A DNA stretch of 61,724 bases, the filler included, from Dugesia japonica (taxonomy: Eukaryota): assembly GCA_001938525.1 (NCBI GenBank). It is 6 parts of 6 records of this genome, joined end to end, with 100 filler letters (N's around TTAATTAATTAA, not from the genome) between each part and the next. Parts side by side here need not be neighbours in the genome. Positions count along the whole stretch, not along the records: positions 1 to 9,149 come from MQRL01614818.1; 5 more parts are not named here. One strand, given 5' to 3'. Position numbers and translations under genes: made by a program. Below the pieces are notes generated by a model. The model had not been told where the DNA came from. It saw only the letters and a program-made list of their open reading frames with translations, and did no database searches. Positions within the stretch are counted from its first letter, which is position 1. Every line of letters begins with the position of its first letter. Positions 1 to 52,866 of this stretch are shown in pieces.

Positions 1-749
1 TATATATATATATATATATAATTTGAAGTAATTATAAGCTTTTTGTTTAAATAAACTGGTGAAATAATAAAAACTGAAATGCTCACATTTGAAGTATTGT
101 GCGTAATTAATTCCAAAATGTATGAGAAATTTTTTCCAGTTTTTAGACTAAGAAAATCATCGGAGAAATGAACCATTTATTACCTGTATACTTAATCTGA
201 ATTAATTCAACCTCGTATTAAATTTATATTTTACACTCGAAGATTTCCAAAATAGAAAAGTCAGCCTCATTCAATCCTAATGGACACAGTTAAGAATTTG
301 TGATCCGATTAACCCATATACACTATTAATAATTAACAACGTAATTGCATACATGATAGTTTTAACAACCATATTTTTTTATACATTATGGAGCTTTGTT
401 GGTCCAATAAAACTAAATTAATTTTAACTGAAGAACCTCAATATTGTTTTCATAATTACAAAAATCTTTAAGAATAACATTAATATACATTTTAACGACT
501 TTTATACTTTTAGTTTTATATTTAACCCAAATTAGATTAATTAACTATTCATGCTTAACTATCCCTTTGGTCTAAATTTCAAACTTAAAAACTTTGGGTC
601 TTTAAACAACTAAAATTCATTATTAAAATGTAATTTAAAATAGATTAAAATGTGAACACCATAATTTAAAATGTGCAATCAACTTCAGTAAAAATATTTC
701 ACAACACTTACTAAACGTAAACTAAAATTACCAGATCAATCTCCTAAGC

Positions 750-1088
750 CAGGCGTGGCCAATAGTTTTTGTCTGTGAGCCAGATTGGAAGGAAAATATG
801 TTATATTAAAATTAAAAAAATGTTAAATATAATCTAAAAATTTTTTCGGCCATTTTGCTTAGATGTGTTATCATGTGGTAAAGACGAGAATAAAAGTTGT
901 AAATCTTTATAAAGGAATCTTTTTGCAAAAGAAAGAAGTATTGAAATTTATTCCACTAATTATTGAAATTCTAATATAAAAGCTAATATTGAATATTAAT
1001 TAACTAATATCAAAAAATGAATTGAGGGCCACATAAATTCATTATACAGGCCGGATCCGGACCGAGGGCCCTATGTTGGGCATGCCTA
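750..1088. mobile_element. hAT/Charlie-like MITE
   Basis: Imperfect TIRs CAGGCGTGGCCAA / TTGGGCATGCCTA, GGGCC-rich subterminal motifs, degenerate 8-bp flanks TCCTAAGC / CTCTTAGC; no ORF. Confidence 0.6.
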
Positions 1089-1279
1089 CTCTTAGCGTAT
1101 ACCTATATTTATCAGTGCTTAGAGAATTAAACACAGGCCAAATTGACACACGATAACTTGAAAAATAATTTTTATTTTTAATAATTTGTATTGGTAATTA
1201 TAATAAGAAATTATTTAATATAAATTTTATAATGCAATTTTTTGTATTTTTTATTTTTAATAATTTGTACTGGTAATTA

Positions 1280-1990
1280 TACCATCCTTTGACCTCGGAA
1301 TGTAGAAAGGCAATTCTAACTGCTGTCATGCAGGCCATCACAAAATCCACCAGGACTTTCTGTAGTAAGAAATGTGAAAGTAGTCCTTAAAAATTTAAAC
1401 ATTCTTCTGTGTGTAGGTTGATCCTTTTTTTGCTAAAGGAAATAAATTTTCAAATCAATCATGCCTGGTGTAAAATTGGTAAGATATATTAGAGACTTTA
1501 CCAAATGTACCATTTCCAAAGATTGTATTTTTGACAAGCTCATTTAGTGTCTCTTAATTTCGAAATTCTGTCAAGGTCATGCTCTCCAGAGTAATTAAAA
1601 TACAAAGTCCTATATCTATCAATAATGATGACAATTTCCGGAGTTGTAGGATTAGACAAGTGAACCACATCTCTGTGATGTAACAGCTTTCTGGTAATAG
1701 AGGACAACTTTGGCAAAGGAGCTAAGACATCCCTGTTCACCTGTGATTAAGTACTTCCCATCACATTTATTGGTGTAAAACAAACTGCTATCTATTCATG
1801 CTTCATTTTATTTTTGACAATTTTGGCTTTGTCAGCTTGTAGGTATGAGTCATGATAATGCTTTGGAATTACTTTTTGAATGATTCCTGCTATTGTCCTT
1901 AAGAAAGCCTTGCACTTGACATAATTATGTTGTCTGCATCTTGTTATCTGTATTTTCTCGAAATTTGTATTATTTTAAACCAAAATAAAT
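1280..1990 (-). pseudogene. Highly decayed Ty3/Gypsy integrase remnant
   Basis: Fragments KVIPKHYHDSY (Zn-finger-like) and PFYIPRSKDG (resembles the AFHPQSNG core motif), broken by frameshifts. Confidence 0.4.
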
Positions 1991-2625
1991 CGCAATTTGG
2001 TTTCCTGGCTAGGTCGTTGAAAATTCCTTTAGTAACCCTGTTTATAAAATAAAACGTTTTCATTTGTAAAAAATATTAATTAAAGATTAAAACAATTTAC
2101 TATTATATAATTGTTCAGTGAAACACATGTATAGATATATAAAATTAAAGAGGATCACAAATAAATAAAACCGCAAGGTTGATCTTTCCCCGTCTAGATC
2201 GTAATGAGAAACTAACTAGCTAACATTACATTACTGACTTGAATAAAAAATTTCACGAGAAATAAGATTCCGAAAATGTACATGAATTTCAACTGAGTTG
2301 CATTGATACAATCTGATGAATTTCTCTCAGAAATTTTCCAAGTAGAATCTAATTAATAATATTTTATGTACGAATATTATCTAAGAATAGATTACTGAAG
2401 CGTTTCTATGAGATTTGATGTACCAAAACTGTCATGCTTATTTCTAGAACCTCCAGCCACCTACATCATCTTTTACTGAAGACTTTGAAAATTATCTCTG
2501 GCATAGTTTAAATACATTTTCCAAATTAAGCAGTCTTTAGCTTTCTACTGATATAATAATTGTATAGCTGTATATTCACTGTTTAATATATTAAATCTAA
2601 TTGCTAATCACCTATCTTCCTTTAA

Positions 2626-2940
2626 TTGAACAAGTTCCATGCAAAATCATTCACTTCCACTAAGAAATATAAAAGCAATAGCGATGATCATGAAATTACC
2701 TGGGAGCTATATCGATTAGCCTAGCGCAATTGGAAAGCTCAGATGGCTGGGAATTAGAGAGGAAGTGGCACACTCTCATAATCCAGAGAGATTTTGAAAG
2801 CGCAGATAGAGACCTTCGTTGAACTGTTAAAGTAGTTCTACGAGCGTGAAAATCGCCTTGTCGAAGATATCCTTAAATTGAGGGCATGAATGCCTCCCGA
2901 TTCAGTCGTGATAGATATTGGCACGCAGACTAAACTGTGA
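2626..2940 (+). pseudogene. Accessory ORF-X copy A: coiled-coil protein with C-terminal LC8-type motif
   Basis: Read through stops: LNKF..SDDHEITWELYRLA*R...KAQIETFVELLK*FYERENRLVEDILKLRA*MPPDSVVIDIGTQTKL*. Clearly homologous to 10061-10419. Confidence 0.7.
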
Positions 2941-3051
2941 TCTGCAACTTTTCGTTGTTTACTTACTATTCTTACTTTTTTACCATGTTGTTATAAGATA
3001 CATGCTTGGTTTTTGTTCTTTTTCTGTTTTGATCTTTTTTTCTTTTACCAG

Positions 3052-3378
3052 TTACCAAGTTCCATAAATAAGTGTCATTGTTTGTTACATGGTCTAACAT
3101 TGGAGCAACATTATTATAAACAACGAGAACGAATGTTACTCAGGCACATAAAGCGGAAGAATTGTTCTATACGACAACTCGAAAACTCCTATAAAATGGA
3201 TATTGCTAATAACACCATCTAACAATTGATTCATAGAGTTGAATTCCTCACACGATTTTTGGATGACCTCGCGACACTTCATAGCTTTATCTATGCGAAC
3301 CAAAATTTGTAACAATTGGGCGACACTGACGATGCCGCCCTATTTGACTTCGACGAAGAGACAGCATCTGCTTCGTGA
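3052..3378 (+). pseudogene. Accessory ORF-Y copy A, unknown function
   Basis: Follows a pyrimidine tract and CAG. Reads LPSSINKCHCLLHGLTLEQH...LLRHIKRK...RVEFL...DTDDAALFDF, with two internal stops and AATAAA at 3391. Homologous to 9591-9940. Confidence 0.7.
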
Positions 3379-3486
3379 GAATGTTCTATAAATAAAATTA
3401 TAGCCTCTTACCGTTTTTCTTATTAGTGAAATAACGTTATATGGAGATTAATAGTGAACTCGAACCAAAGAAATACTGGTATTCAC

Positions 3487-4489
3487 TGGGGTTTCTCATT
3501 TCCCGTAAATTTTAAATCTCGGCATTTCCCGGGATCCCGGGGAGAAATATAAATATTGTAAAACATTAAATCAAATATTATTCCAGAAATATTAATTTAT
3601 TTCAACAAAAAGAAACTGTAGAAAATAATAAATTATTAAAATATGATTTTGAAAAAAATATAAATAAAACATAAATAAAAATCACAATTCGAAATTCATA
3701 ACTGTCGTAGCCCGGGGACTTTAAGATAAAACTTTTGAAAGAAATTTTTTTTTGAAATATTTTTTATTGTTTGTTCTGTTTGCCACTTGATAGTCATTAA
3801 TGCTGAATACACATTATTTAAATTTTCAGTGCGCTTTCTAGTGGCCTCGAAAATATTTTTTTTTAATTTTAATGCTTACCTAGGATTGATGTTTCACCTT
3901 CCCCCTGTTTGACATTATAAATAGCTGCATACAATTTTCGTGAAGTGTTAATTCAACTTCGCTAAATGATCTTGAGACAGCCGTCTGTGGTATCAATGAA
4001 ATGTCTTCATTACCATGACTCTCGTATATTACTTGATTATATAGTGAAGTATCACTAGCATCCTCAATGTATAGCCTTGTGAAAAGTTTTTTAGCTGTTG
4101 CATGTAAAGCATATTTGGAGGGCAAGATCAATTTGAAATTGATATCTTCAGATTCATAATGATAATTTGACGGGATGTTTAAAAGTTTAAGTAAGCCAAC
4201 TAAATTTATATTTCTGCGTTCTTGAATTCTTTGCTGCACAGATTGAAGCCTTTTAGTAGAAATTCAATTTTTCAAGTTTCAAACTGCAATGCACTCTGCA
4301 CTCTTGTTTATGTTTATGAATAAACTATCTTACATAATTAAAATAATTATTTGTCAAATGTAAAAAATTGAATAGCAAATTAAAAAAGAAAAACCCAAAA
4401 ATATAAAAAATTAAATTAAAGAAAGAAATTGATTTCCCGGGATATCACGCTATCAATTTTACCATAGGGATCCCGTTTAAGAAACACTA
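3487..4489 (-). mobile_element. Internally deleted hAT transposon
   Basis: Ends TGGGGTTTC / GAAACACTA; duplicated flank TATTCAC(T) at 3480 and 4490; subterminal TTTCCCGGGA motifs; ORF 3880-4239 (RIQERRNINLVGLL) resembles hAT transposase. Confidence 0.65.
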
Positions 4490-5054
4490 TATTCACTCAA
4501 ACCACGGATTAAAAGTTACTGACTCTGTCCTGAAAATCTACTTTAGGGACGCTAGATCAAACTCTTTGCGGGGTTCTACTAGGCGACCGAATATTTGTGT
4601 GTCGATTTCAGAATTTTTGATTTGTCATGTAACTATATTTAACAACTGATGAATTAACTCACGTTTATTAAATATATATTTCCTTCTACCAGTCCGTTGA
4701 TTAAAGTATAAAAGTAAGGACGCATAAGATGTAGCATTAGGAAATAAACGGTATTTAAGGTTAGCAGCTACAAAAGTCTTGTTTTCTAACTGAATTCAAC
4801 TGTTTATATATTACTTTTCATCAATAAATAGTAGCTCAACTTTTAAAAATTATCTATTCTAACAGATTTAGAATTTTTATGATACTCTGACACATTAATT
4901 TTATTTGCAAAACTTTCCTTATTCAAATTATTCAAACTCTTGGTGTGAGTTTGCAGTTCACCTCGGCATGGAAGCATATGATGTAAAGGTTACGCTATTA
5001 GTTTTCATTGGGTTTTTCGATACATGAGACAGTCCATCTGCACTCAATTAAGTA

Positions 5055-7748
5055 CAGTCAACCCTCCTATAACGCGACGGATACGTTCTTAGGAAACGTC
5101 GCGTTCTAGGAAATCGCGTTGTAAGAGACATGAACTCTATAGATAAAAAGAAGTTAGGTTCCAAGTATAAAAAACTGCATTTAAATTAATAAAATGAAAC
5201 TTTAATAAGTTAATATTCAAGATTTTATTAGGAAGTCTTCAGTAAAATTATAATAAATTAATAAAATTTAATAAAATAGTTTACGTTTTTAAAAATTAAG
5301 AACTATATAAAAATTCAAATTTATAAAAATTAAAACAAAACAAATGCTGATGCATATTATTTATACAAATTTTTCTTCATCACTACTAAGCGGATGATGC
5401 CGCGAACGTTTGGCTGGTGCTACATCCGAATCTGAACAACTGGAGCAATGGATAGGTTCGTTAGCTCTCTTTATCGTTATCGGCTTGACAAAATCAGTTA
5501 TTAAAGATTTTTTCATTTTTGCGAGCAAATTTTTATAAATTTCGTCATAAGGAGACAAGCAATTTTCTAAATTTCTTTTAAATTTTTGAGATCTTTCCTC
5601 CAGTGGATCATTCTCTAAAAAATAATTTGCTAACTGCTTCGCCATACCTAAACCTTTTTCAACACATTTTACAGTAAATTTCTTGGATTTATCTTCATCA
5701 TCAGATATATCTTCAGAATTACTATCTTCAATCGGNNNNNNNNNNNNNNNNNNNNNNNNNNNNNNNNNNNNNNNNNNNNNNNNNNNNNNNNNNNNNNNNN
5801 NNNNNNNNNNNNCCAATGTTATTTCATCGAACCCATCGCGTCTTATTGCGTGTGCAATATTAAGTATCTTTCCAAATCCGGCCTGAGTTGGTTCAACAGC
5901 ATCTTTCTGATTTACCATTTTGGGTAATAATACTTTCCAACAAGCATTTACCGTGGATTGACGCATTTCTTTAATTGACGATGCAACAAATTCAACACAA
6001 TACAAAATTGAGAATTGTTTCCAAACTTCGCTAATTGTAATATATATGTTTGTCTATTTTGTCTAAGATTAATTGAAACGACCTACGGATATAAATTTAT
6101 TTAAAATTCGCTATGATCCCTTGGTCCAAAGGCTGTTATAGCGAGGTAATATTAGGGGGTAAAAAGGTTATCTACACATTTGGGTGATTTAAATCACATG
6201 AATGTGAGGGCGCATTATTCAAAATTAGTAGAACTTTGAATGCTACGTTCTTTTTCTTCAAATAGTTTTCCACATCCGGAACAAAACAATGATGGAACCA
6301 ATTGTTAAATAAATTAGCCGTCATCCATGACTTTTTATTGACCCTCCAATACACAGGAAGGTTTTTTTTGTTACATCGTTTCAACGCTCATTGAATTTAA
6401 CGATCGGTTAATGAATATAGGCTTAGTCATAAGATCACCAGATGCGTTACTGCAGAAAAGTAAGGTGATCCGATCCTTAGCAGCCTTAAATACAGATGCT
6501 ATTCTTTCATTTTTTGAAATATAGGTTCTAGAGGGCATTTTTGTCCACCACAATTCTGTCTCGTCGGCGTTAAACACCTGATCGGCGGAATAGCACTTTT
6601 CTTGAATTATTTTGGAAAGTTCTCCTGGAAACAGCTTTGATCCTTCTACATCAGCAGATGCTTTTTCTCCCTGTAGTTTTATATTGTGCAAAAAATGCCA
6701 TTTTTTGAATTATTCAAACCATCCATTGCTAGCAACAAACCTATGGCTGGGTTCATCAGCTGACGATTCTCCCATTTCTTTTAAACATTTAAATATTTTT
6801 AAAGCGTTTTCTTTGAGCCTATTTCCGTTTAAAGGTAACCATTTTTTGTCATATCTTCTACCCATACTATAAGGGCTTGTTCCAGTTTTTCCATTATATT
6901 TGTTCTCGGACGAGCAGTAATTTTGGCAAGCACAGATGATCCAGATGCTACCAAATTCCTAATTATTTCTTCTGTTTGTTTTATGGTTCTAATTGTTGAC
7001 TCATTTAAATTAAAATATTTGACTACATCAGTAATCTTCTCTTGATTTTTAAGCCTATTCAAAATTTGAATTTTGGTTTGAAGTGAAATAAATTTTCGGA
7101 TTTTCTTTCATTCGGCATTTTGAATGGTATAATGATATTTTTCCTATAAATTTAAATTATATATAATTATATTATAATTGATTTATATAAAAAATCTTTC
7201 TGAACCAATTTCTTACTTACCTTTTAATTATCACTGAAACAATATTTTAATTTTTGTGTTTGGTTCTGTTCCATTCAACACCAAGACTAAACTTACGAAA
7301 AATTAATTGTTCATTGTATTTGTAGGTTCATCACTTATATCAAAACCGTCTATGTACATACTATTAAATTTTGGATAATAGAGAAAACAGAATTAAAACA
7401 AAAAGAACACCTGTTTCAACATACACATGTATAGAAAATAAAATATGTATGTATGTACATATAATAAAATTTCTTTTCATCCTAAAGTTACCACAACTGC
7501 AAAANNNNNNNNNNNNNNNNNNNNNNNNNNNNNNNNNNNNNNNNNNNNNNNNNNTGTATGTATGTACATATAATAAAATTTCTTTTCATCCTAAAGTTAC
7601 CACAACTGCAAAATAAACACACATTTTTATATTTATACACTGAGATTTTTTTAAATCGCGTTTTAGGAAAAAAACTCGCGTTATGAGAAAAATTACCGTA
7701 ATTTATAAATCGCGTTATAGCGAAAACGCGTTGTAGGAGGCTTTACTG
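5055..7748 (-). mobile_element. Tigger/pogo DNA transposon, near full length, frameshifted transposase (about 5361-7130)
   Basis: TIRs CAGTCAACCCTCCTATAACGCG / CGCGTTGTAGGAGGCTTTACTG with TA TSD; HTH region, VFNADETEL, KDRITLLFCSNASG, WMT, LILNNAPSH motifs. Confidence 0.93.
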
Positions 7749-8617
7749 TATCCATAGAAACATCGCTGGTCGTATAATATAAAACAAAGGTATTTCAATT
7801 ATGCAAAAGATTAAAGGAAATTTATCATTAGCCAGACTAAATAGGTTGCTAAAATTGCATTGAAATGCATTAATAAGGAGCTTAAGCACTGTAGAATAAT
7901 CTGAGATGTTTCAAAGCATTTGAAAATGTCTAGAGACTAATTCATCATCTAGAGACTGATTTGATAATATTCAAAAGTTCGTCTAACCCTTCATGAATTC
8001 TAAGGAACATTCATCATAGAAATTATTTGAATATTTTTGGATTATGATGAGTATCTAAGATTGGTCTAACAACCGAATTTCACTCAGTATTGGTCATATT
8101 TATTTGTTCACTTCTTCATGGTTCGGATTGAAATTCAAAGTAAAAACCAAACTAAAAATACAATTATTCTTCGGAACCAAACAATTTGAATATCAAATAT
8201 TGCATTATAAAATATTCTAATATTCTAGAAAGATCAATATACATTAAATGCAGTTGATACTACAATACTATAAAAAAGAAATTATTGAATAATAAATTTT
8301 TAATCAATTTTTTTAATTATAAATTTTTATTGTAACTTCAAAAGGTAATATTTTAAAAATGACTCTTATACTTTATATGTAGTTGTTTCTAATTTTCTAT
8401 AATAACTCGTATATTTATCAAGACGATATCTGTATATTACATAATAAAGCGTCTATGTTTTGTGTGGAAACTAATTTCCCATGACAAAGTGTATTCTTTC
8501 AATGTTGAAATGTTTTTTTTCAATAATGAATCCTATATTTTACATGTTGACTCAAAATTTAAATGTGTTGTTTTAGGATTTCGTGAGATAAAATGTAATT
8601 TTAATGTAATAGATTAC

Positions 8618-8763
8618 AGTTTTAGTGTGATGGAATGCTATTTTAGTGTGATGTATTGACGTAGAGTTTATGTGACTAATTATAATTTTAGTATATGGAT
8701 TATTGTTTTAAGGCGATGACTTAGAAAGTTTAATGTGATGAACTAAATTTTAGTGTGATGGAT
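8618..8763. repeat. Degenerate tandem repeat with core TTTTAGTGTGATG
   Basis: About 6-7 imperfect copies spaced roughly 20-25 bp apart. Confidence 0.6.
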
Positions 8764-8774
8764 TAAAATTTTAA

Positions 8775-9149
8775 AGTAGGTGGATAGTGGCGCATTGCGG
8801 CAATTTTTTTAAAGCGGTTATCGCGGGACCCACATTACGCTTGAGCTGAGTTTTTTAATCGATAATTATTGATTATCGATTTTTGATCGGATCAGTTTTT
8901 TTTGATTGGATCAGATTTTTTTTGATCAGATCAATTTTTTTAATCTTTATTTTTTATCTTTTTTTCTATTTTTTTACCTTTTTTTAATCCTTTTTTTTAC
9001 CTTTTCTTACGGAGGGAATTTTTTTTTAATTGTTTTTTTTGTTTTAATAACTTAACATTTTTTTGTTTCAATTATTGAAAATGATTTGTTTTAATTAATA
9101 CTAGAATTTTGTTGGTAATTAAAATTTTATTATTTTTTTGTGAGAAGAC
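8775..9149 (+). mobile_element. Polinton/Maverick-like terminal inverted repeat fragment
   Basis: Begins AGTAGGTGGATAGTGGCGC (18/19 identical to 28527), followed by short GATC(A/G)GATCA repeats. 5'-AG/AGT starts are typical of Polinton termini. Confidence 0.55.
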
Positions 9150-9249
9150 NNNNNNNNNNNNNNNNNNNNNNNNNNNNNNNNNNNNNNNNNNNNTTAATTA
9201 ATTAANNNNNNNNNNNNNNNNNNNNNNNNNNNNNNNNNNNNNNNNNNNN
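9150..9249. other. Artificial scaffold spacer
   Basis: 44 N + TTAATTAATTAA (stops in all six frames) + 44 N. Confidence 0.97.

Positions 9250-9313
<64 letters not shown>
9250..9313. repeat. (ATT)n microsatellite
   Basis: Perfect run at the scaffold end. Confidence 0.97.
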
Positions 9314-9315
<2 letters not shown>

Positions 9316-9590
9316 TTTGTGGTCTCACCCGAGTTGGGAATCGAAAACCAGTGGCTGTGGAAAAGACAGCCCTCTAGGGGACCCATTCAAGAATTTTAAT
9401 CCAAAGCCCCTCAGTTGGATATTCAGTGTAGAGTGGTTGACCTTCGACCCTTACGGGAGGTTCGCACTCGTACACCTTTAATTTGGGTTCATTTTTTTCC
9501 CTGATAGTTATAAACAAGTTAAACAAAAGTTATCTGAAAATATCTATTAAATAACATTTATTGTTCTTCCAAAACACCAGGCTCTAACCA

Positions 9591-9940
9591 CTATACTGGG
9601 TCAGTCACCCAAAAATCGAATGCAGCTAAGTCATCGCTGTCATTCCACTGCATCCAATCCGGGTTCCCCATCTGACTTGACAGGTCAGCTGTATATTGTT
9701 TCAAGAATTTTATCTTCCGTTGCAATATCTGGGTATTCTGCGCTTCAAGAGCCTTAGTTTTCTAGGCCAAGTCATTTTGTTTCTTAACCACTAAATCAAA
9801 TTTCTTGATTAATTGATCCCGCCGAGAGAGATGTCTTAGCAGAGCCTGGTCGGTCTTACGTTTTGAATGGCGTTCTAACAATAGACGGCTCATGATCCGA
9901 TGACATCTCCACAAACTAGTTGGTAATACAATTCGTGCCA
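9591..9940 (-). pseudogene. Accessory ORF-Y copy B
   Basis: Acceptor TTTTCTTTAG at 9941. Reads ARIVLPTSLWRCH...LLRHLSRR...RKIKFLKQYTADL...DSDDLAAFDFWVTDPV*, with one internal stop at 9762 and AATAAA at 9557-9562. Confidence 0.72.
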
Positions 9941-10060
9941 CTAAAGAAAAATTACAGTTTAGGTAGGCAACCTCCACGAAAAAAATTGGAGGATTAGATT
10001 GTAAAAGATACAAATAATAAAACGATTTATTAAATCCAATCACAAATAAAGCACGAAAAC

Positions 10061-10419
10061 TCAAGAGCGGTTAGTCTGGATACCTTTATCTATCAAAGGC
10101 GGGGCCAAAGGTATGGCTGCCCTCAATTTTAATATATTTTCTATTAATTTATTTTCCCGCTCCTGATAAGACTTGATAATTTCATTGAAGGATTTAACTT
10201 GCGCTTTCCATATCCTCTCTTGATTCTGGGTCGCTTCCACTTCCGATTTAAAAGATAAACATTTCTTCTTATAGCGCTTAACTTTAGCCTCAGATGCTGC
10301 AGTCTCAGCCTCCCGTCGCCGCTTTGCGAGTCGGTATAAATTTCACGTGAGCTCTATATCATAACTGGTTTCACGTAGTTTTTTATTCGGGCCCTGAGAT
10401 CTATTCAAGGATGAATGCA
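10061..10419 (-). pseudogene. Accessory ORF-X copy B: coiled coil ending DKGIQTNRS
   Basis: Acceptor ATTTTAG at 10420. Frame is open except one TGA at 10343-10345, where copy A has TGG (Trp). Confidence 0.72.
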
Positions 10420-10623
10420 CTAAAATGCAATATTACTCATTAACATAGATTCAAAAGCGAAATAAATTTCCTAAAGAAAGTAACTCGAAGATAAAACGCA
10501 TAAGGAAAAAATCTCCCTACTGAGATTGCGTTTGAATAAAACAATAACTTTTCAGATAACTGGAATAAAGGGTACAAAATATTTTACTAAGAACATCAGA
10601 TAAACACAAAGATAATGTTGGTC

Positions 10624-11043
10624 TTATGGAGAGATATTTGGTGTGAGCGGAGCATGGTTTTCGGCTGACCCGCCACTAGCCCTATTTCGTAAATCCCATA
10701 GAGTATTTCCGATATCAATATGAAGACTAGTATCAGGAGGCAAATGTGTGGCCGCCACGGGTAGAAAGGTAGGTCCGTCTTGCCATACTCTAGTGGATTC
10801 CCCGGTTAAAGGGTCTACAACCAAGTCAAGGTGTACGACCTCTTGGGTTCGGTCCGGTCCTCGCCAAGCATAATATGCGTTTCTTTCTACGGCATCCCAT
10901 TCCCGCTCATTGTCGGCGTCGATGGCTGGCAAGTTTGAATGATCTCGAATCACATCCGCATTCCGATCATGCTGATTATGGTAACATTTAAAAACCACTT
11001 TGTTAGTCCTGGTATCGAGAAGGGTCTCCCAGATGAAATCCAT
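10624..11043 (-). CDS. Intact 139-aa orphan ORF, putative retroelement accessory protein
   Basis: ATG-to-stop ORF, GC-richer than its flanks, directly preceded by TTATTATTATTTACAG-A-ATG. Confidence 0.6.
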   Translation of the reverse strand: MDFIWETLLDTRTNKVVFKCYHNQHDRNADVIRDHSNLPAIDADNEREWDAVERNAYYAWRGPDRTQEVVHLDLVVDPLTGESTRVWQDGPTFLPVAATHLPPDTSLHIDIGNTLWDLRNRASGGSAENHAPLTPNISP

Positions 11044-11332
11044 TCTGTAAATAATAATAACCTAAATTCCAGATTCTATGATTTATGGTTCTAAAATAAG
11101 GGGAATGATACTGATGTGACTATCTACTGGAAAGTCAAATTAGTGAATAATCTAACAATGTAGAAAGAGGCAGACCCGAAATCACAGAGTAATTAAAGGA
11201 ATGACGATATTCTACTTTGGGGCGAATTCAACAAATGAACAAAGTTTTATAAGGTTTAATTGATAAAACAATGATTCAGTAGTGTGCTTTATTATGTCAC
11301 TTTTAAACTGGTCCATGATACCAGGTTTTGGA

Positions 11333-11518
11333 TTACTCCTTGTGCTCCCCGTCGGTAGACGATTCCAACGGGAACATCTTGGCAAGACAGCCCAGGTCTG
11401 TCTCGTCGGGGTGCTCGACGATCCGAGGGAATAGCAAATAACCAATTAACTGTTTTAGACGAGCTGCGCGTCGCTGTTTTTTGATAGTGTGGAGAACTCT
11501 CTGTAACTCTGGGGTCAT
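11333..11518 (-). CDS. 61-aa basic orphan ORF, putative retroelement accessory protein
   Basis: Preceded by TTATTATTAATTGTAG-AAA-ATG; contains a KKQRRAARLK basic patch. Confidence 0.5.
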   Translation of the reverse strand: MTPELQRVLHTIKKQRRAARLKQLIGYLLFPRIVEHPDETDLGCLAKMFPLESSTDGEHKE

Positions 11519-11899
11519 TTTCTACAATTAATAATAAGGGTCAATATTTCATCCATATACCAGTTGCTACTCAAATTTACCCTGAGAGTAAAATAAAATT
11601 AACGAAAAGAAAAAATTTATATGGTGCGATAAAATTCCTGTTTGGACACGAACTCGATTAAAAACAAAATGAGTTACATAAACCCCACTATCGAATCATG
11701 CCTAGTGAATTTTATAAAGTGACGACCAACACTACCATATATTTACACAAAACTTCCCTTATTTTTACTGGGTCCTCTTTTTATAATAATTTAGGCTCGA
11801 TAGCGTCATCTAACCCCCTCTCAATCATCTCGTACTAAAAATCGTATGATCCACTTACCCGTGATTTGAGACGATGTCATAGGAAGTAAGCTGGTTCTC

Positions 11900-37494: not shown

Positions 37495-38860
37495 NNNNNN
37501 NNNNNNNNNNNNNNNNNNNNNNNNNNNNNNNNNNNNNNNNNNNNNNNNNNNNNNNNNNNNNNNNNNNNNNNNNNNNNNNNNTTAATAAGATATAATAATT
37601 AATAAGAAAATATAATTAATAAGAAATAATAAAAATACTAAAAATAATAAAATAAAAATAATAAATAAAAATAATTAAATAAAAATAATAAAGTAAAAAT
37701 AATAAAATAAAAATAATAAAATAAAAATGAAAAATAATAAAAATATTACAATAATAAAAATATTAAAATAATGAAAAATAATAAAAAAATAAATAATAAA
37801 AATATTAAATAAAAATAATAAATCGAAAAAAACAATATTAACCTTTGCTTTCTCTGGACTCATTAAATACAATTCCTGTTCTCCCATCCAGGCTTCAGCT
37901 TCACTGGCATCAAACAAATATTGCTGAGCTACCAGATTATCTTCTAAAACTGCAAAGCGTTCAAATAATTTCCTTTGTAACTCATCCCAAAGTTCCCAAA
38001 GTTCTTTCATAGCGATTTTAAATTTATCACTTTGTGGATGACCTTCAGAAATCATTATTTCTCCGTCCTATTAGAAAAATCCCAAATAAATGCAAAAAAT
38101 TTCAATTTGTTTTACTTCACAAACGGTTTCAATTCGAGGACGATGATTGTCAACTTCATTATTTAAAGTTTTTAACCGACGAATAAACTGTTGAACAGCT
38201 AACAAAGAATCTCCAATTTTGCCGTTATTTTGAACCAGATTAATTTTTTCTTCAATCCATTGTTTTTCATCTTCAATATCTCTCAAGAATTGCCTTACAC
38301 GTTTACGTTTCATGAGGTTTTCACGGCGTCCTGCTAATGGAGCTTCAACTTGAGTTAATTTAACTCGAACTTCTTGTTGCATTTGTTCAATTTCTTCTTC
38401 TCGATCAGGATATTGTTCTTTCAGTTTTACAGCGTGAGTCTGGAAACATTAGCACTTGAAATAAAATTATTACAGAAATTACTTCCATATCGGTAAGCAT
38501 TTTCCTTTTCTGTTCTAGTTCTTTGTCTTTCTTTTCTTGATCCTTCATTTGTTCATTTATTTCCACAAGACCAATTTCAGTTTCTGAATCTTCTTCAGTT
38601 GTAATAATTTGAGAACTAATATCAGTAATCCATTCATTCATAGATTTTGCTGTTTCGTTGAAAATCGTTTCTGTTAATTCAAGTAAATACAAGTGAATTC
38701 GATTTATTTAACCAATTTCACCTCTATTAGCATCAGCCATTTTCAGACTTTTATCTTGTGCTGTTTTATTCAATTCATTCCATTGCTGTGCTAATTCATC
38801 AATCTTCGATTGAGTAATATCAGCAAACTGTGGGCGTTGTTGCTTCAATTCTTCTCCATC
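29791..38860 (-). CDS. Beta-spectrin, six internal exons (38722-38860, 38483-38670, 38116-38439, 37843-38067, 32669-33247, 29791-30167)
   Basis: All GT-AG junctions join in frame. Beta-spectrin repeat signatures QQYLFDASEAEAWMGEQELYLM, KAKDEQGA, SHEMGSDYEH, INESWADLLELIETR, QRKHQAFEQE. Confidence 0.95.
31720..32174. mobile_element. hAT/Charlie-like MITE in a spectrin intron
   Basis: TIRs CAGTGTTTCCCA / TGGGAAGCACTG with perfect 8-bp TSD GTTTAAAT. Confidence 0.88.
35536..35756 (+). mobile_element. 5' LTR (221 bp) followed by PBS-like TGGCGTTCC
   Basis: TGTTAG...CTAACA inverted ends; its start matches the 3' LTR start at 49812, which follows a polypurine tract. Confidence 0.82.
36020..36440 (+). 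pseudogene. Gypsy gag fragment with CCHC-type knuckle
   Basis: ILCSGCNKPGHIRK downstream of the LTR/PBS; antisense within a spectrin intron. Confidence 0.8.
36753..37225. mobile_element. pogo/Tigger-like MITE
   Basis: TIRs TAGTCAAACCTCTTGA / TCAAGAGGTTTCACTG. Confidence 0.7.
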
Positions 38861-40079: not shown

Positions 40080-40718
40080 TCCAACGCAACTTTTACTTAT
40101 TCAATACATGTCGTATTTTATCCTTTTATTTTGCATCTAGTAAAACATATCTTGGTTCATTAGCTGGAGATTCCAAACAAATCTTAGCAGGTGATCGTTT
40201 CAATTGAATATGAACCTAGAATAAGGTATTTCGGTTGATCCATGAAATCAAGTTGCAACGAACCACATAGTGATAATTGTTTTGATTTTGCAATAGACAT
40301 TTTCTATCTGCTTCTGATCCATATCTTATTGCTGCAAGACAGATATTTTTACTATCACCATTATAATTTATTATAGTTTCAATTATTGTTTTGTAAAGAT
40401 AAGATCCATTTCCACCTTCAATTTTGAAATTATTAAACGAAAAAATTACATCCTTTCAAAAGACCTGCATTATGAGTGTCTGCTAAATCTTTACCAGCCT
40501 TATCAACCACGTTCACTTAAATATAAAATAAAGTATCATTCAAATCCAAATATTCTGTTTGAGATCCATTTATAAAAACTTTACGTCACTTTGTGATTCA
40601 GAAATTGAATTCATAGCAAAGACATCTTCGAAAGTATCCTTTTCAATTACAGCTTGAGAAGATGTCAAAAATACATAATTCAATTTTACCGCAAATTATT
40701 TTTTAGATATATTTCCAT
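40080..40718 (-). pseudogene. Polinton major capsid protein (PY/hexon-like), N-terminal half
   Basis: SQAVIEKDTFEDVFAMNSI...INGSQTEYLDLNDTLFYI...YLYKTIIETIINY...IQLKRS; frameshifted. Confidence 0.8.
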
Positions 40719-40731
40719 GACCTCTTATTCG

Positions 40732-41118
40732 TTAGTTTATACGTGATTCGTGAGATTTCTTACATTTTCTACCATTTTGTGGTGTTTTGACTTGATTTGA
40801 TAGCATATTAGTTATTTCAGATGGTATTTTACTAGTTATACTTTGCAGTAATATGTTTGCTACTTTTAGAATCATACTGATTACTCCACTAGGTAAGGAT
40901 GAAATAACATTTCCAAGCTCAGCTATTTCATTAGATTTTAATGTTGGTAGTATTTTTCCATCATTAGCTAGTACATCCTGAGCTGTTTTTATACCAAAAG
41001 AACCAATACGTTTACGAATCGGCAAAGCAAATCTATCTATTGTTCGTAACCTACCGGATCCATACTGTTTTCCAAGAAAGTAAGGTAATTATCCACCTGC
41101 TTGAACAGTATTATACAT
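40732..41118 (-). pseudogene. Polinton core-like protein (PZ/pVII-like)
   Basis: QAGG*LPYFLGKQYGSG...ALP...DVL; lies between penton and MCP. Confidence 0.65.
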
Positions 41119-41144
41119 TGAAAAAATATCAAAATTAATTATTT

Positions 41145-42307
41145 ATTTTCTAAAATGTTAAGTTAAATAGGTTTTTGAATCTTCTGGAAACTTGATTTAT
41201 TTTCCGTTATCATCACGTATATTAATTTCTATATTGCTTATGCATGATGTTGCAATAGGTAAATACATTCGATTATCAACTATTTTTTGTATTTACAAAT
41301 CTTCATCAGTTTTATGCTTTTCTATCGAAAGGTACAATAACATCTCCTACAATTATAGGTTCAACAAGAATACTATAGATAAATATTTGCTGATGTAACT
41401 TAACTGATGATTTTTGGATTTCTAACACCTTGTATTACACCATTCTTCATATCTGCAAGCGAATAATGTTCTTTTTCTAAGCCCAATATTCTTGACAAGA
41501 CTTTATCGAATGTGACAGTTTTGTCTTTCATTGAGAATTGAAATAAATTATTTGCTTTCAGAGAAATCGTATTAAATAGTTTAGATCCGCTTTTTGTTAA
41601 ATTTTTACTTAGTTGGTCTATTTTTGTTATGTATAATTCATCGTTTAACTGTACAGTATGATAAGTTACTTTAGAATAAGCCATTATAATTTTTACATTT
41701 TCTAATGAAGAATCATTTTTAAATAATGAATATATAACAGAAAGCCATCCTTTATCCATTTTGTTAGATGTATATCGGAATCCAAATTTATGTGCAATTT
41801 TTTCATGTTCAAATGTGAGTACATATGGATATTCACAACCAACAGTTAAATAACCTCTGAAAGATATAAAAGCATTCTCATTTTGCTTGACAGTTACGAC
41901 TTTTGATTTGGGATTAAGTGTTACAGTTATTTCATTTACTATATTTTTAGATGTCATGTATTGAATTTTAGAATTGCTATATAAAGGAAATATTTGATAT
42001 ACAAAGGAAAAATCTAACAATGCTACTTCCCAACTATCATCCATATAAATTGAATTTGGAAGCTCAAAAATGAATTTGCTAACATTATTTTCTGGATGAA
42101 TAAGTGTACAGCTTGCATCCGTCCATATTATCTTTAGTATCCCAATATCAACAATTCAATGCTAATTTGAAGTCAAAATTAGGTAATGATTGCAATCCAC
42201 CCATTGTTTATTAATATATTGGTCAAAAGCTTCAATTGTTTATTTGAAATGAGTTAAGCCTAATGCTGTACACTTGGTAAAAGTGTAAAGAAATTACTCG
42301 ATTTCAT
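41145..42307 (-). pseudogene. Polinton minor capsid protein (PX) with a 5' insertion
   Basis: FFTLLPS...HPENNVSKFIFELPNSIYMDDSWEVAL...ILGL...MYLPI...IEINIRDDNG. Confidence 0.8.
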
Positions 42308-42319
42308 CTGAATTCTCTT

Positions 42320-43330
42320 CCTGATTGACTATTTGTGATGCTAATATCCAACTTGGTTTTCGTATCCATGCCACTTTACATAGTATTGTTTTTTCTTTCC
42401 TGATCCTTTTGATTTGATTATTGTTTCTATTCTATATATCTCTGGTGGTGGAATGACTTGTAATTCTTGCTCATAGAATTTTACTTGCAAGATATTATCT
42501 TCATAATCTTTAATAACATACATGACCGAATTTTGTTTAATGTCGATTTTTATTATTTGAAACACTTCATCACTCCAATTACTATTGAAATTCTGGTGAA
42601 GCTAATCTTTTCGAGATTCTCACATGATCGCCAACTTTAGACTTTGGTTTTTAATTTGCTTTTGAATGTTTACGCGATAACCATAACTTTAATTGATTGT
42701 TTGTATTTACATCAACCGGTCTTGCTCCATTTTATCCCTTATGACCAGAATGATTATAACTATGAATAAGTTTTGGTAAAACATTTATCCAAGTCTTATT
42801 ACTAACATGTTTAAAGTACTTTCTCTCAATGTGCGATTAAATCTCTCTACATCTGCAGCTTTATACTGAAAGAATACACTATAATAATTTATGGATAAAT
42901 GATTGATAAGTTGTTTTACCTTGAAATTGTAAAATCCCTTACCCAAATCCGTTTGTAAGTTTTCTAGATGTCAATTTTTAAACATTGTCTTGATTGCTAG
43001 TTCCATATCTTTAGCAAATTTGGATTTAACAGGAACACCTCATGCAAATTTACTCAATACATCGATAGATGTCAAAATATAATTGTATCCTTTATTAATT
43101 TTTGAATATGAAATCGTCTCCATTAGATTCATTTGCCATAAATCCTCAATACCATATGTTTTATATGCTCTGGTTGGAAATCTTTTCAACATCGAATTGT
43201 TCAGGCTGTACGCTAGCTACCCAGATAACCACTTTTTTTGTCTTTCTTTTCGTTTTTTGAGCTGCTTTCATCAATTTTTACGCCTCCAAAACTTGCTGTG
43301 TTTTTTGCATCCATCCATATTTTCTTTAGT
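42320..43330 (-). pseudogene. Polinton retroviral-like integrase with C-terminal chromodomain
   Basis: DLWQMNL, YILTSIDVLSKFA, LQTDLGKGF, ERFNRTL, KVGDHVRIS, FYEQELQ, YYVKWHGY. Confidence 0.9.
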
Positions 43331-43431
43331 ATCCCTATTACAACAATTAAATGCTAATTTTTAGTCAAAATTAGGTAATGATTGCAATCCACTCATTGCT
43401 TATTAATATATTGGTCAAAAGCTTCAATTGT

Positions 43432-43700
43432 TTATTTGAAATGAGTGAAGCCTAATGCTGCCCATGCAATTGGTAGTAATGCTGCTATAAATCCACCAAC
43501 TTGATCATTTTGTATTACTTTCCTCATCAACCTCCTATTTTTTGTATTTACAAACGATAGTAAGGTTTTTTTAATGTTTTTTCAATGTTTCCTTTTTTGC
43601 TTTGCTCAAATTTACATATTTACATATTTACAAAACAATATTTACAATAATCTCAAGTAAATCATCCATGACATATGGTGGAAATGAGTCCAAAACTCTC
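43432..43700 (-). pseudogene. Polinton small protein ending QVGGFIAALLPIAWAALG
   Basis: xGG-F adenain-type cleavage site followed by a hydrophobic helix. Confidence 0.7.
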
Positions 43701-44043
43701 ATTCTCATTGATTATGATGATTTAATCAAAGCAGTAAAAATTGGAATACTTCTTTCTAATTTCATTTTTATTTCAATAACAAAGACATACTAGTTAATTG
43801 TTTATAATGATATCCATTTTTAATTCATCAATTTCAGTTTTATCTAGTACTTTTTGCAAGTTTTATAAACTTATTCAATTGTTTTTCTAATTTGCATACG
43901 TTTTCTTATAAGATTGTTTCTTCTGAGATTTTTTTAAGACTGCTTTGTCTTTTTCTTCAAAATCATCCTTTTTAAATTTTTAACAACAGCACCACCAACT
44001 ACAATTTTTTTAAACTTTGCCATTTTATATAATATCATAAAAA

Positions 44044-44282
44044 TTACCTGTTTGGTTTATATACTGTGATACCATTAGGGTCAAACATATCTGTTCTCAC
44101 CCTATAATCATATGGACATTGTTGTGTAAAGTCAAGAAATAGATATCCATGTAGTTTTTCTGTTGCATCTTGAAATGATTTAATAAGAAATTGTCTGTTA
44201 TTTGGATATGCTTGTCTTGCTAGAAAATCAACAACAGTCTTGATCTCTAGGATTTTTGAATAGAACCAAATATTGCACGTTT
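44044..44282 (-). pseudogene. Polinton packaging ATPase, C-terminal part
   Basis: YLVLFKNPRD...FLARQAYP...FQDAT...GYLFLDFTQ...RVRTDMF. Confidence 0.85.
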
Positions 44283-46229
44283 AAATAATCATTTAAATAA
44301 ATAATTAAATAATCATTTCATATTTATCGTAACCAAATTATCTCATCGTAGCCATGAATCATAACTAAACCATCTCATCTTTCATCATAAATCACTTCAT
44401 ATTTATGATAATCAAATCATCTCATCTTTCATAAATCATTAAAAATTATCTCATCATTGAGTGAACGATCTAGTAATTCAAGATCTCTGAGCACTGATGC
44501 TCATCACTGCTAGCGGAGCTAGTCAATGATGACCATCGTCTCAGTCTTCCGTTCGCATAATTTTTTTTATAATAATTAAATAACAAATTATAAATTACTT
44601 TGTCAGTGATCCTTTTATAGAAATGAATTCAATGCCACACTTATCCTTTTAACTACCAGATAATAAGTGCGAACTAATAAAATTTTTAAGAGTTTTTTGT
44701 TTTGTGTTGTTTTTCTAAATTCTGTAACTCTTTTTATATCAGATTTTCCATCGTCAATTTTGACGTTTCAAGTACGCACCCACTTCAGTTTTTTAGAGAA
44801 GCGGTGCTCACTCGCAGATTAGCATACGATGATTATATTTAGGCATGTTTTTATTTTCATTTTAAACTCGGGTTCTATATAAAAAATTATTTCATACATA
44901 TGAGTACCGGTGCTGAATCGGTCTCATAGATTTTGTCTATATTTCTGCTTTTCTACAAAGTGCGGTGNNNNNNNNNNNNNNNNNNNNNNNNNNNNNNNNN
45001 NNNNNNNNNNNNNNNNNNNNNNNNNNNNNNNNNNNNNNNNNNNNNNNNNNNNNNNNNNNNNNNNNNNNNNNNNNNNNNNNNNNNNNNNNNNNNNNNNNNN
45101 NNNNNNNNNNNNNNNNNNNNNNNNNNNNNNNNNNNNNNNNNNNNNNNNNNNNNNNNNNNNNNNNNNNNNNNNNNNNNNNNNNNNNNNNNNNNNNNNNNNN
45201 NNTTTAATATGACTTAAAAATTCTTATTTAACTTTTCATGATCTTTCATAATCCATAACTTTTATTTAAAAATTCAAACCCAATCGTTATAAATAATAAT
45301 ATTTATTCAATAATAATAAATTTAATAATATTTATCGTAAAATAATAATAATTTTACATANNNNNNNNNNNNNNNNNNNNNNNNNNNNNNNNNNNNNNNN
45401 NNNNNNNNNNCGGTATTTACCCGACACTGATAATCTCCAAGAAAATTTCTTGTGGTGACATGCATGGCTTCAATAACATCTGTGATTATTGACTCGGCGC
45501 AAACCACTTTAGAAAAATAATAATATTTATTATTTAAAATAATAATTCTTGAAATTCTGTTCTGACTTTATAAATAGGAAAATATACATGACAAAATATA
45601 AATAATTTAATATGACTTAAAAATTCTTATTTAACTTTTCATGATCTTTCATAATCCATAACTTTTATTTAAAAATTCAAACCCAATCGTTATAAATAAT
45701 AATATTTATTCAATAATAATAAATTTAATAATATTTATCGTAAAATAATAATAATTTTACATAGTTTGTATCTATATTAAACATAGGGATTCATACGTGA
45801 ATGAATCTAATTAATTTACTATTCTTACAAAATCCTACTTAACCTTTTATTATCTTTCATTACATATAATTCCAGTTTCTTAATTCTAATTTCTTCTACG
45901 TAATTAATAATATTTAACTAATATATAACTATATTTAACTAATATAATATTACAGTCTATTTATTATAATAATATGATTGTTCCTACCAACATTATAATA
46001 ATTTCTTTAGAGTTTTTAACTTTAATAATAATACTGCTTTATTTCATATCTCTTTTCTATAATAATTCTTATTAATTTGACGAAAATCTTCTATTGAACT
46101 ATTTTTTGTTTTAATCTTACTTTCTTACATTAATTATTATTAATCATTATTATATTCTAAATATCCTTTCTAATATATTTATACTTTTAAAAAATAAATA
46201 TAATTATAAATAATAATATATCGCACATT

Positions 46230-49200
46230 CTAATTTTGATTTCGTTCATTATTCTTTCTTTACCGTTTCCGGTCATAATTCATATATACTCGTAACCCGT
46301 AGTTCGATTGCGTCCTCGCATTCCTTTGGTTTTGGTTCATATTTTATGATACTCGCTTGATTTTCAATACATACTTAATTCTTACTAGTTATTCTCTTAT
46401 TAGTCCTTACTCCATTAGTTTCCACTTTGAGGGTCGTCTATTAGTCTTTATTTTATTATCTAGTTCAATCTTAATACATTGTAATTTTTACTGGTTTGTT
46501 GTTATTAACAGGAGAAATTTATCAGTAGTTGTCATGTTTAGAAAATATTCTTAATACCCTTAATAATTTAATTACGAAAAAATTACTTCCTAGAAATTCC
46601 AATGTTTTTCAGATAATAATTAATTCAAAATTTGTTAATGAAACATATATTGCTAAGATAGGGTACAGCAAAAACTTTAAAATGACATAACCCATCAGTA
46701 CTTACATGAGCCATGAATCGATCTGGAGCAGGCACTGTGTAAAATAGAATTATCACGATCACCAATTGTATTGACGTGGCGTATTCAACTTAATCATTAC
46801 AACTTAATCATAACAAAGATTATTATTCCGGATTCTATGTCCTCCGTGATTTTGCAAGTAAGAAATCGTTGCAAAACACCAATTTTAAAACCAGTTATTA
46901 CATTTTGCGATAAATTTCGATCCAAAATTTGATTGAGTTAAAATTTGTTTGATTTTCTTCTGAAATTGAAAAGGTATTTATACTAGTTTTTTTTCCACCC
47001 CGTTCTTTTTATTGGTTATTGGGCATCGTACTATTCCTGTAGCGTTCTTATTAGCGTGATTGTCACATGAGTTCTTCTTATTAGTTGAAACTTTGGAATT
47101 CCAAAATTATTGGAGTTCCATGGGTCAATTTTCAAACCCTGGTATCTTCTTTTTTAGTCTTCCTAAAATTTTTTAATTTAGACTTTCGAAATCTCCGAGT
47201 TTTTATTGACTATAATTTTCTTAATTGCTAATTTTGTCTCAATGGGAAGTCTTCATTTTCCTATATTTTCGTATAAATTTAATTTTCGTTTTTTTTAAAA
47301 TAAATCATTTTAATTTGCATAATTTATTTTATTTAAATATTTTCTTCTTAATTAATAATTAGAAGTTCATTTTTTGTTTTTCTGATCTAAAATTAATTTA
47401 ATTTCTCCATTTTCTTCTACTTATTTATTCATTAAATTTATTTTCTCTTCAATTATTAATTCAATATGATTTCCTTATTTTTGCTTAATGAATTAATTTC
47501 TAAGTTGCTATTTATTATTTGTTTGTCGTGTTAATAGCTCTTATTACTTCTTTTCTTCTTTGACTTTCTTATTGTTTCCGGCTGTAATCCTAGATTTTGC
47601 TGGTTATATTTTAGCTCCTTAATCTGGTTTTCTCTTTAGTTATTGCTTTCTTTAATCAAATTGTGTCCTTCCTTTGTCTGGATTCTTCGTTTTCTTTTCT
47701 TGTGGTACTCTTTCAAATTTTCGGATTTGGTGTTTCACCCCAACAAATGTATTATATCAATTTTATTTTACATATCAAATTGTCTCAAAATACATTTGTG
47801 AACCGTTATTGATGTAGCATGGCAAAATAATTGATGAGTGAATCAATGAATTTAACCAAATTTTTTTGAATTGTAAAAACAATATTTTAATCAATTTAAA
47901 TTTAAAATTTCTTTTAAAGCTTAAGTGCTTTTTAATAACATTGATTTATTTACATTCTTCTTGCCATTTACAACCACCAATTTGTAACATTAGTGCCAAC
48001 AGTTTAGTTTTTAATTTTTCAGATTTAGGTTCTTTTATGTATAGTCTAGCATTGGACATATGTTTCAAAATCTGCTCTTGAAAGAGCATCTTCATTCAGA
48101 TTTTCTTCAACTTTCTTGTATTCTATTTTAATATCCAAACTGCTAATTTTGAAATTGCTATGTTATTAGTCTTTTAGTCTTCAGCATAAACATTTGCATT
48201 TCATGATTACTTCTAATAAATAATGTTTAACATATTCTGCGAAATAAATAATCACCAAAAGTTCTTTCCTGGTAATGCAATAATCCAGCTCATGTTTACT
48301 TATGGCTTTAGATCCATAAGCAATAACTCTTTCTTTACAATCGTTATCAATTTGACTTAAAACTACACATATTTTATCAAATATGGCATTAGTATTCAAT
48401 ATGAATTCTTTAGAAACATTGGGAAATACTACAACTGGAGCATTTATTAGTTGAGATTTCAAATTTTTAAAAGAAATTTTGCACTTTTGTCCAGCATATT
48501 TTTTTCTGGCTACTATCAAATAGATTTTCTAAACCTTTTGAATACTTTGCGTAATCCTTTATAAATTTCCTATATTAATTTGCGAGGCCTATAAAACTTA
48601 TCAACGTTTTAACAAATTTTGGGGTTTCAAAATTAAAACTTGCTTCAATTTTTTGTTATCAGTATGTATTCATTTTGAATGAATAATATGACCCAGAAAT
48701 TTAATCTCGGTTTTCATGAAATTACATTTAGATGGATTTATTTTTAAAATGGCTTTTTAATACGTTTTAAAACATTCTTAATTTCTTTTAGTGTTCTTTA
48801 ATAGTTTCGGAAAAATTTAGTCCATATTTTTTTCCAATTTAAGGGAGCTATAACTTAAGTCTTCAATTTTTGAAAAGCAATATGAACAGCTGCAATTCAA
48901 AATGAAATTATATTAACACAATATTGTGCATCTTTTATCGGTAAAGCAGTTTTATATTTTGCATTATCTGTTAATTCAATTTGATAGTAAGCATACTAGT
49001 AAAATATTTGGCTCCATATAAAATATCCTTCATTTCTTCAGTGTTTGGAATGAGAAAAATTGGTCTTTCTGTAACTTCATTTAATAATATATAATCTAAG
49101 CAAAGTCATATTTCATCATTGTCTCGTTTTTCTACGCAAACCAAAGAAGCATTTCAAGGTGAGTAACATTTACTTATAAATCCATTTATTTCCATTTCCT

Positions 49201-49560: not shown

Positions 49561-49599
49561 TTATATCATAATCAGTTATTGAAAACTGATTCTGAAGAT

Positions 49600-52748: not shown

Positions 52749-52866
52749 ATGGAGCNAAGAGCAGTTATAAAATTTAAGTTGAAATGTGGAAAAACAGCGA
52801 TAGAAATATTTAAAATGATGCAAATTTTATACGGAAAGACTGTATGAGTGGTAATAAGGTCTTTCA
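52749..52866 (+). pseudogene. Mariner transposase N-terminal fragment
   Basis: MEXRAVIKFKLKCGKTAIEIFKMMQ. Confidence 0.7.

Follow-up and report, generated by a model that had tools for sequence, protein, structure and literature searches.

Organization of the two loci

The window, by which we mean the whole 61,724-nucleotide stretch of Dugesia japonica DNA that was analysed, contains two loci encoding the same two small proteins, ORF-X and ORF-Y, in the same order and on two different scaffolds. This pair had been reported in the preliminary description, and every peptide quoted there was found in place. In copy 1, on the plus strand, ORF-X (2626-2940) encodes a predicted coiled coil that ends in DIGTQT and is interrupted by 5 internal stops in 104 codons. 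An AT/U-rich spacer (2941-3051, +), which ends in a strong acceptor-like site, leads to ORF-Y (3052-3378, +), a predicted basic helix or coiled coil with an acidic-aromatic tail and 2 internal stops in 108 codons. In copy 2, on the minus strand, ORF-X (10061-10420) has 1 stop in 119 codons, ends in DKGIQT and was modelled as a coiled-coil homodimer. The AT-rich spacer that follows (9942-10060, -) carries an AATAAA (10031) and acceptor-like sites at 9940 and 9971, and ORF-Y (9591-9941, -), with 1 stop in 116 codons, is predicted to form a helix over residues 8-91 before its acidic-aromatic tail.

The earlier term "two-gene cassette" is too narrow: X and Y have no starts, could be exons and, in copy 2, form part of a string of at least five ORFs. 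This string comprises V, W, X, Y and a putative Z, all on the same strand between AT-rich spacers. ORF-V (11333-11518, -; GC3 0.61) is intact and encodes 61 aa from an ATG three bases past an acceptor-like site. ORF-W (10624-11043, -) is likewise intact, with 139 aa and an ATG one base past a strong acceptor-like site. The putative ORF or exon Z (9372-9502, -) has 42 open codons (GC1 0.56, GC3 0.44) and overlaps a purine run plus TG. A possible promoter and leader region, judged from the sequence, lies at 11858-12250 (-); it includes a TATA-like box near 12249, recognized by eye, and a short ORF-U (12174-12004, -). Directly upstream of X in copy 1 we tentatively place a C-terminal remnant of W (2448-2540, +; aligned over 2457-2522). 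The evidence for this remnant, which would occupy the same position as W in copy 2, is borderline (p 0.017 in 1,000 shuffles; the score was reached by 1 of 60 shuffles and by none of 46 control windows). V and Z had no counterpart in copy 1 (p 0.72 and 0.97).

Each ORF-Y is followed by AATAAA, as had been claimed (3391-3396, + and 9557-9562, -). The motif is weak evidence for the end of a unit and not proof of it: it is common here (chance of about 0.11 within 35 nt), copy 2 has four others, and after each of these two a further acceptor-like site follows (3427 and 9500).

The window is AT-rich (about 27% GC), a composition that would suit a triclad planarian; the A/T content of Schmidtea is given as over 70% (PMC11410931). 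It consists of six scaffolds joined by five identical linkers, and a 44N-linker-44N joint at 9150-9249 separates the scaffolds of copy 1 and copy 2. The scaffold order is probably not the genomic order, since matches to beta-spectrin were all confined to one scaffold and its missing exons were absent from the neighbouring scaffolds; linkage was examined for the spectrin scaffold only. The spectrin matches represent the middle exons of a flatworm beta-spectrin gene (29790-38860, -); one exon shows 72% identity to Taenia, 65% to Cichlidogyrus and about 51% to vertebrates, which places the host among the flatworms. The window also contains a satellite of roughly 10-bp units with gaps (15320-16570) and an AT-rich ORF of 271 codons (58437-59252, +) with a hydrophobic C-terminal stretch and no Pfam match.

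Homology, past selection and decay

The similarity between the two copies is highly significant. A tblastn search within the window gave E values of 7e-11 for X and 8e-9 for Y. Local alignment scores were 156 (X) and 127 (Y), compared with best scores of 50 and 54 in 2,000 shuffles each (z = 29 and 22), and shifted and antisense frames scored far lower than the true frame. Both proteins are predicted to be helical with a heptad-like periodicity of 3.4-3.6 (in X a hydrophobic periodicity of 3.6 residues), which could in principle produce chance similarity between coiled-coil-like sequences. The shuffle scores refute this; moreover, X and Y are unlike each other, and among 1,644 six-frame pieces no other one matched either profile better than E 0.5. 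An assembly duplicate is contradicted by the DNA of the copies, which is too diverged for blastn. We regard the probability of either artefact as negligible.

The copies were compared codon by codon. Over 177 aligned sense codons pS was 0.80 (95% bootstrap interval 0.70-0.90) and pN was 0.40 (0.34-0.46); pN reached or exceeded pS in none of 500 bootstraps. For X the dN/dS ratio is about 0.18, while for Y dS is saturated and the ratio is incomputable. First, second and third codon positions were identical in 53, 64 and 36 of the 96 codons that make up the two longest ungapped blocks (Fisher p 3e-4), and in 83, 97 and 54 of 149 codons from four ungapped blocks. Spacer and flank DNA of the two copies did not align (p 0.45-0.70), nor did the translations of the X-Y spacers (p 0.37). 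Past purifying selection, as proposed in the preliminary description, is thus supported by conserved amino acids next to saturated synonymous sites and unalignable spacers. We also considered X, spacer and Y as one long ORF and rejected it; the spacers are open in the Y frame, but this is expected by chance (0.27 and 0.09).

Both copies are now decayed. Copy 1 has 7 stops in 212 codons and copy 2 has 2 in 235; no frameshift occurs within the aligned blocks of either copy. Judged by the saturated dS, the two copies represent old, separate lineages and not recent copies of one family. These lineages thus split long ago while their proteins were under selection, and each copy died afterwards.

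Base composition along the string

GC content alternates along copy 2: V, W, X and Y as well as the tail of Z have 0.41-0.51, the spacers 0.28-0.32. GC3 was 0.39-0.61 in all six cassette ORFs and 0.18-0.28 in all five spectrin stretches; two Gypsy remnants had values of 0.21-0.27, and two further ORFs 0.18-0.19. The codon composition of the cassette is therefore unlike that of the host genes examined and unlike that of the Gypsy reverse transcriptase (RT) remnant described below.

Elsewhere in the window, at 51660-50754 (-), two GC-rich coiled-coil-like ORFs (GC3 about 0.5) flank an AT-rich spacer with an acceptor-like site at its end (51071, phase 1), and an AATAAA follows the last stop. The layout is the same as that of the X/Y unit. 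As a third copy of X this locus was rejected: its similarity gave an unadjusted p of 0.03 against one copy and 0.11 against the other, it ranked 10th of 3,384 windows and it was absent from the profile search.

Missing starts and candidate splice sites

Reading from the preceding stop to the conserved block, we found no in-frame ATG in any of the four X/Y ORF copies. ORF-X of copy 2 contains no Met anywhere, and the first Met in ORF-Y of copy 1 comes only after the conserved start. Each of these ORFs is preceded by an AG that closes an AT-rich stretch. Since a start ahead of the conserved block is missing and a candidate acceptor precedes each ORF, X and Y would need splicing to be read.

Candidate acceptors were ranked against 5,050 AG sites with an ad hoc score of our own, by which three host spectrin acceptors reached percentiles of 96.3, 87.9 and 98.9. 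The Y acceptor of copy 1 (first exon base 3052, phase 0) ranked at the 99.7th percentile. For Y of copy 2 there are two candidates, 9940 (phase 1, 95.6th percentile) and 9971 (phase 0, 90.7th), and both X acceptors (2635 and 10419) fell under the 90th-percentile cut. High-scoring acceptor-like sites were more frequent on the coding strand of copy 2 than on the opposite strand (18 versus 7, p 0.043); copy 1 showed no such bias (6 versus 7).

The acceptors of X, Y and the W remnant in copy 1 are all in phase 0, and the best X and Y acceptors in copy 2 are in phase 1. Three donor-like sites in copy 2 are also in phase 1 (donor phases were counted by hand): there is a phase-1 donor-like site near 10085 within ORF-X, and sites near 12028 and 11860 are both in phase 1 relative to an upstream ATG. 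The agreement in phase between the acceptors of copy 2 and the donor-like sites upstream is best fitted by a short shared leader exon. A model in which a spliced leader (SL) supplies the AUG would fit copy 1; copy 2 would have to use other AG sites.

Predicted properties of the X and Y proteins

The stop-free part of X (93 aa) was modelled as an in-register parallel homodimer with contacts over residues 10-77. The ipSAE score was 0.39, and the best of three controls gave 0.00; runs agreed in at least 84% of contacts, with pLDDT of at least 78. In calibration, 21 of 30 solved microbial homodimers and none of 23 monomers attained the mark set for ipSAE; for eukaryotes the figures were 17 of 29 homodimers (7 of 16 from animals) and 0 of 30 monomers. 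Among homodimers without an older solved relative only 1 of 7 reached the mark, and a coiled coil such as X may pass through its likeness to known coiled coils.

About 10 residues after the coil both X copies keep the sequence D-x-G-[IT]-Q-T, followed by the stop. The binding motif of LC8 is described as [D/S]-K-x-[T/V/I]-Q-[T/V]-[D/E] (PMC3078936). The X tail agrees with it at 5 of 6 specified positions in copy 2 (DKGIQT) and at 4 of 6 in copy 1 (DIGTQT), and the Q-T anchor is retained. In six frames G[IT]QT was found nowhere else; the pattern was picked after it had been seen. The tail of X may thus bind the host hub protein LC8 (dynein light chain). In LC8/DYNLL clients a coiled coil lies beside a TQT-type motif, and X resembles them in that its motif comes about 10 residues after the modelled parallel dimer; it has no sequence relation to any known client.

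ORF-Y was modelled as one long helix (mean pLDDT 82, pTM 0.40). Its first 45 residues include 13-14 basic residues (His counted) and 3 acidic ones; the last 25 include 6-7 acidic residues and no basic one. Such a layout would suit a coiled coil that binds nucleic acids and carries an acidic tail for activation or as an adaptor.

Search for related proteins

The two proteins had been described as having no recognizable domain, and the searches agreed. Pfam gave no match above the curated cut-off for any of the six cassette proteins, PHROGs gave none for the same six, and a search of PDB sequences found none below E 0.17. The Y profile had no match among 1.84 billion representatives, and near-length word searches with X and W found no relative. 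In the atlas search W had no usable match, and the stop-free 93-aa part of X hit generic unnamed clusters at 0.90-0.91 with low recognition. The structure model of W was unusable (pLDDT 39). A fold search with Y in BFVD, where the query model is a bare helix, gave no match at E <= 0.001.

In prokaryotic genomes 2 of 54 pattern matches passed and both were rejected: one straddles the start of a gene, presumably rpoZ, and the other spans 14 residues. Comparisons of X, V and W with both prokaryotic loci gave nothing better than E 0.02-0.1.

These negative results are weak for a flatworm lineage, because flatworm mobile genes are poorly covered by the databases. The best match of a host spectrin exon reached only 72% (proteins over 2000 aa were excluded), and five ORFs in the window that we take to be Polinton-like also had no Pfam match. 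In the titles and abstract openings searched, no description of such a cassette was found; figures and supplements of the original Burro description, and Repbase entries, may already contain these ORFs.

Mobile-element context

We infer that a mobile origin of the cassette is likely. We found no transposase, RT, terminal repeat or target-site duplication with a link to it. Around the copies, in flanks that are limited by scaffold ends, we detected no element boundary, second LTR, TIR or long direct repeat; there was no long inverted repeat around either copy, and the scanned flanks held no transposase, pPolB, integrase or capsid gene. The high copy number proposed earlier is a Poisson inference that assumes a genome of 0.8-1.1 Gb and unlinked scaffolds, under which about 100-300 copies would be needed before one such window is expected.

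A truncated Ty3/Gypsy RT remnant lies at 14376-14684 (-), on the same strand as copy 2 and about 4 kb upstream of its ORF-X (E 1.6e-6 to Ty3 RT). Like the cassette it is decayed, with 4 stops in 103 codons. Its GC3 (0.27) differs from that of the cassette, which weakens it as the cassette's own pol. An integrase remnant near 13700 and a protease remnant near 12830, both noticed by eye, were unsupported in searches. Upstream of copy 1 there is no recognized transposable element (TE) gene. A GC-rich piece at 14360-13990 (-), fused to the truncated Gypsy RT, contains a PAM2-like motif (Pfam E 0.052) and is possibly the gag or ORF1 of another element.

Beyond Y in copy 2, the segment 9502-9320 (-) starts with a purine run plus TG (9502-9490) and ends about 170 bp later with CA at an (AAT)n contig end. 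These LTR-like ends have no partner; they occur at copy 2 only, and the window contains 9 such runs. Rfam, searched over 1-15400 for the hammerhead ribozymes of Penelope-like elements, gave no match at E <= 1, and the predicted folding of the 3' segment was no better than that of shuffled sequences (z -0.49).

Other elements are scattered over the window. A decayed Tigger/pogo-like transposase lies at 5361-7107 (-), with DDE_1 at E 2e-14 and weak matches to CENP-B_N and HTH_Tnp_Tc5. Decayed Gypsy-type pol remnants and a gag-like one, recognized by eye, occur at 21850-23450 (+), 35750-36570 (+) and 48180-49900 (-); RNase H was found at 48184-48528 (E 7.5e-22). ORF remnants at 18600-21000, 26800-28200 and 40700-44300, in which nothing was detected beyond a chromo domain (E 3e-4) and a weak match to endonuclease VII, are presumably Polinton-like (protease-, capsid-, ATPase- and integrase-chromo-like). 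Further ORF remnants at 52858-53672 (+), where no Pfam match supports an RT, resemble what we assume to be the end of a Penelope-like RT.

Origin of the cassette

Starting from the observed homology, gene order, past selection, missing starts, composition and present decay, we read the two loci as remnants, each decayed on its own, of an accessory-gene region that belonged to a selfish element in a flatworm (probably triclad) host, and we give this reading a probability of about one half. It is based on the finding of dead copies from two old lineages within a 62-kb sample, on their foreign codons, on the dense short ORFs behind acceptors and on the motif for a host hub. The single most likely carrier would be a large Gypsy-type LTR retroelement. 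In such an element one promoter would drive a pre-mRNA across a string of short ORFs separated by U-rich spacers of 100-300 nt. Splicing would open the start-less X and Y by joining a short leader that carries an ATG to the acceptor before each. X would form a parallel coiled-coil dimer whose C-terminus is clamped by host LC8, and Y, whose long helix starts basic and leads to an acidic-aromatic tail, would probably serve in regulation or as an adaptor, for example as a transactivator.

Alternatively, X and Y could be exons of one spliced host gene (leader, X, Y), in which case the loci would be old paralogous pseudogenes of a lineage-specific host gene family. The donor near 10085 and the acceptor at 9940 in copy 2, both in phase 1, would join X to Y in frame; the spacer length is conserved (111 and 119 nt), as in an intron, and neither copy has a TE gene tied to it. 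However, that donor is followed downstream by the LC8-type motif and the stop, which both copies have kept despite saturated synonymous sites; the spacer of copy 1 has no phase-1 AG, and V and W are complete ORFs of their own. The GC3 of the cassette, about twice that of the host genes examined, and the fact that both sampled copies are dead also argue against a host family, which we consider rather unlikely. The foreign codon composition and the compact multi-ORF layout would suit endogenised fragments of a flatworm DNA virus or virus-like element, as yet undescribed, that has several alternative acceptors in its early or late unit and is unrelated to LTR elements. The deep divergence between the copies, the lack of relatives in protein databases and the second locus of the same layout at 51660-50754 are consistent with it, and LC8 binding by a viral protein is documented for lyssavirus P (PMC3078936). 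Against a virus stand the absence of a linked capsid, Rep, polymerase or integrase gene and the negative searches with PHROGs (0 of 6) and, for the bare-helix model of Y, with BFVD; this origin seems unlikely.

Two further readings place the missing starts in a spliced leader. In an SL trans-spliced operon, borne either by the host or by an element, the terminal AUG of the flatworm leader would supply them. Flatworm leaders are described as having a terminal ATG, and short operon spacers, of up to 300 bp, as common (PMC12582326); the phase-0 acceptors of X, Y and the W remnant in copy 1 agree with this, as does the succession of AATAAA and acceptor, which copy 2 shows behind both X and Y and copy 1 behind Y. 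But the best X and Y acceptors of copy 2 are in phase 1, phase 0 would need 10393 and 9971, and copy 2 has cis donor-like sites upstream. Such an operon appears quite improbable. It is also quite doubtful, if a little less so, that the loci represent an undescribed flatworm class of mobile or virus-like elements, in which start-less small proteins would borrow the start of a spliced leader, one of them would recruit LC8 and the GC-rich coiled-coil pair at 51 kb, as a third member, would be distantly related. The shared leader would here possibly be the host's own AUG-ending SL RNA.

Comparison with known systems

Planarian Burro elements carry accessory ORFs, reach thousands of copies and are described as leaving decayed fragments with stops in Dugesia japonica; foamy-like fish elements are likewise enlarged by accessory ORFs (PMC6431247). 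Burro/GYPSM1 thus resembles the cassette in its likely host group, its accessory ORFs and its decayed fragments. As described, it differs in having one huge polyprotein and an upstream accessory ORF instead of a string of short spliced ORFs. The Burro domains MATH, BIR, BCL2, ankyrin, env and dUTPase had no Pfam match near either copy, in a scan that covered 1000-3701 and 9331-14200 in all six frames and 14220-15330 in the three minus frames, in sequence where decay lowers sensitivity.

The ORF3s of LTR elements are typically expressed from spliced messages (PMC5408684). Those of the bdelloid elements Vesta, Juno and TelKA, some with coiled coils, resemble the cassette as extra ORFs (PMC5408684), as do the accessory regions of complex or foamy-like retroviruses. 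As described, they are mostly single env or enzyme ORFs tied to gag-pol and LTRs, whereas the cassette has five or more short ORFs without homology, to which no pol could be tied. Flatworm SL trans-spliced operons, as far as they are described (PMC12582326), have the same short spacers, a single strand, an acceptor before each ORF and starts that an SL could supply; they differ through the phase conflict in copy 2 and through the codon composition, which is unlike that of the host genes examined.

Implications

Should the loci derive from a host gene family, they would be a modest case of lineage-specific pseudogenes. If their starts came from the host's spliced leader, this would be a selfish element that exploits trans-splicing, of which we found none in the literature searched (titles, abstract openings and passages of one paper). 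Planarian genomes, which serve as a model for PIWI-based silencing in stem cells, have been shaped by large retroelements whose annotation is poor. X and Y are two conserved proteins without database relatives which, being start-less, are missed by ORF callers. As relics of an accessory-gene region they would be new element-encoded regulators and good probes for the parent element.
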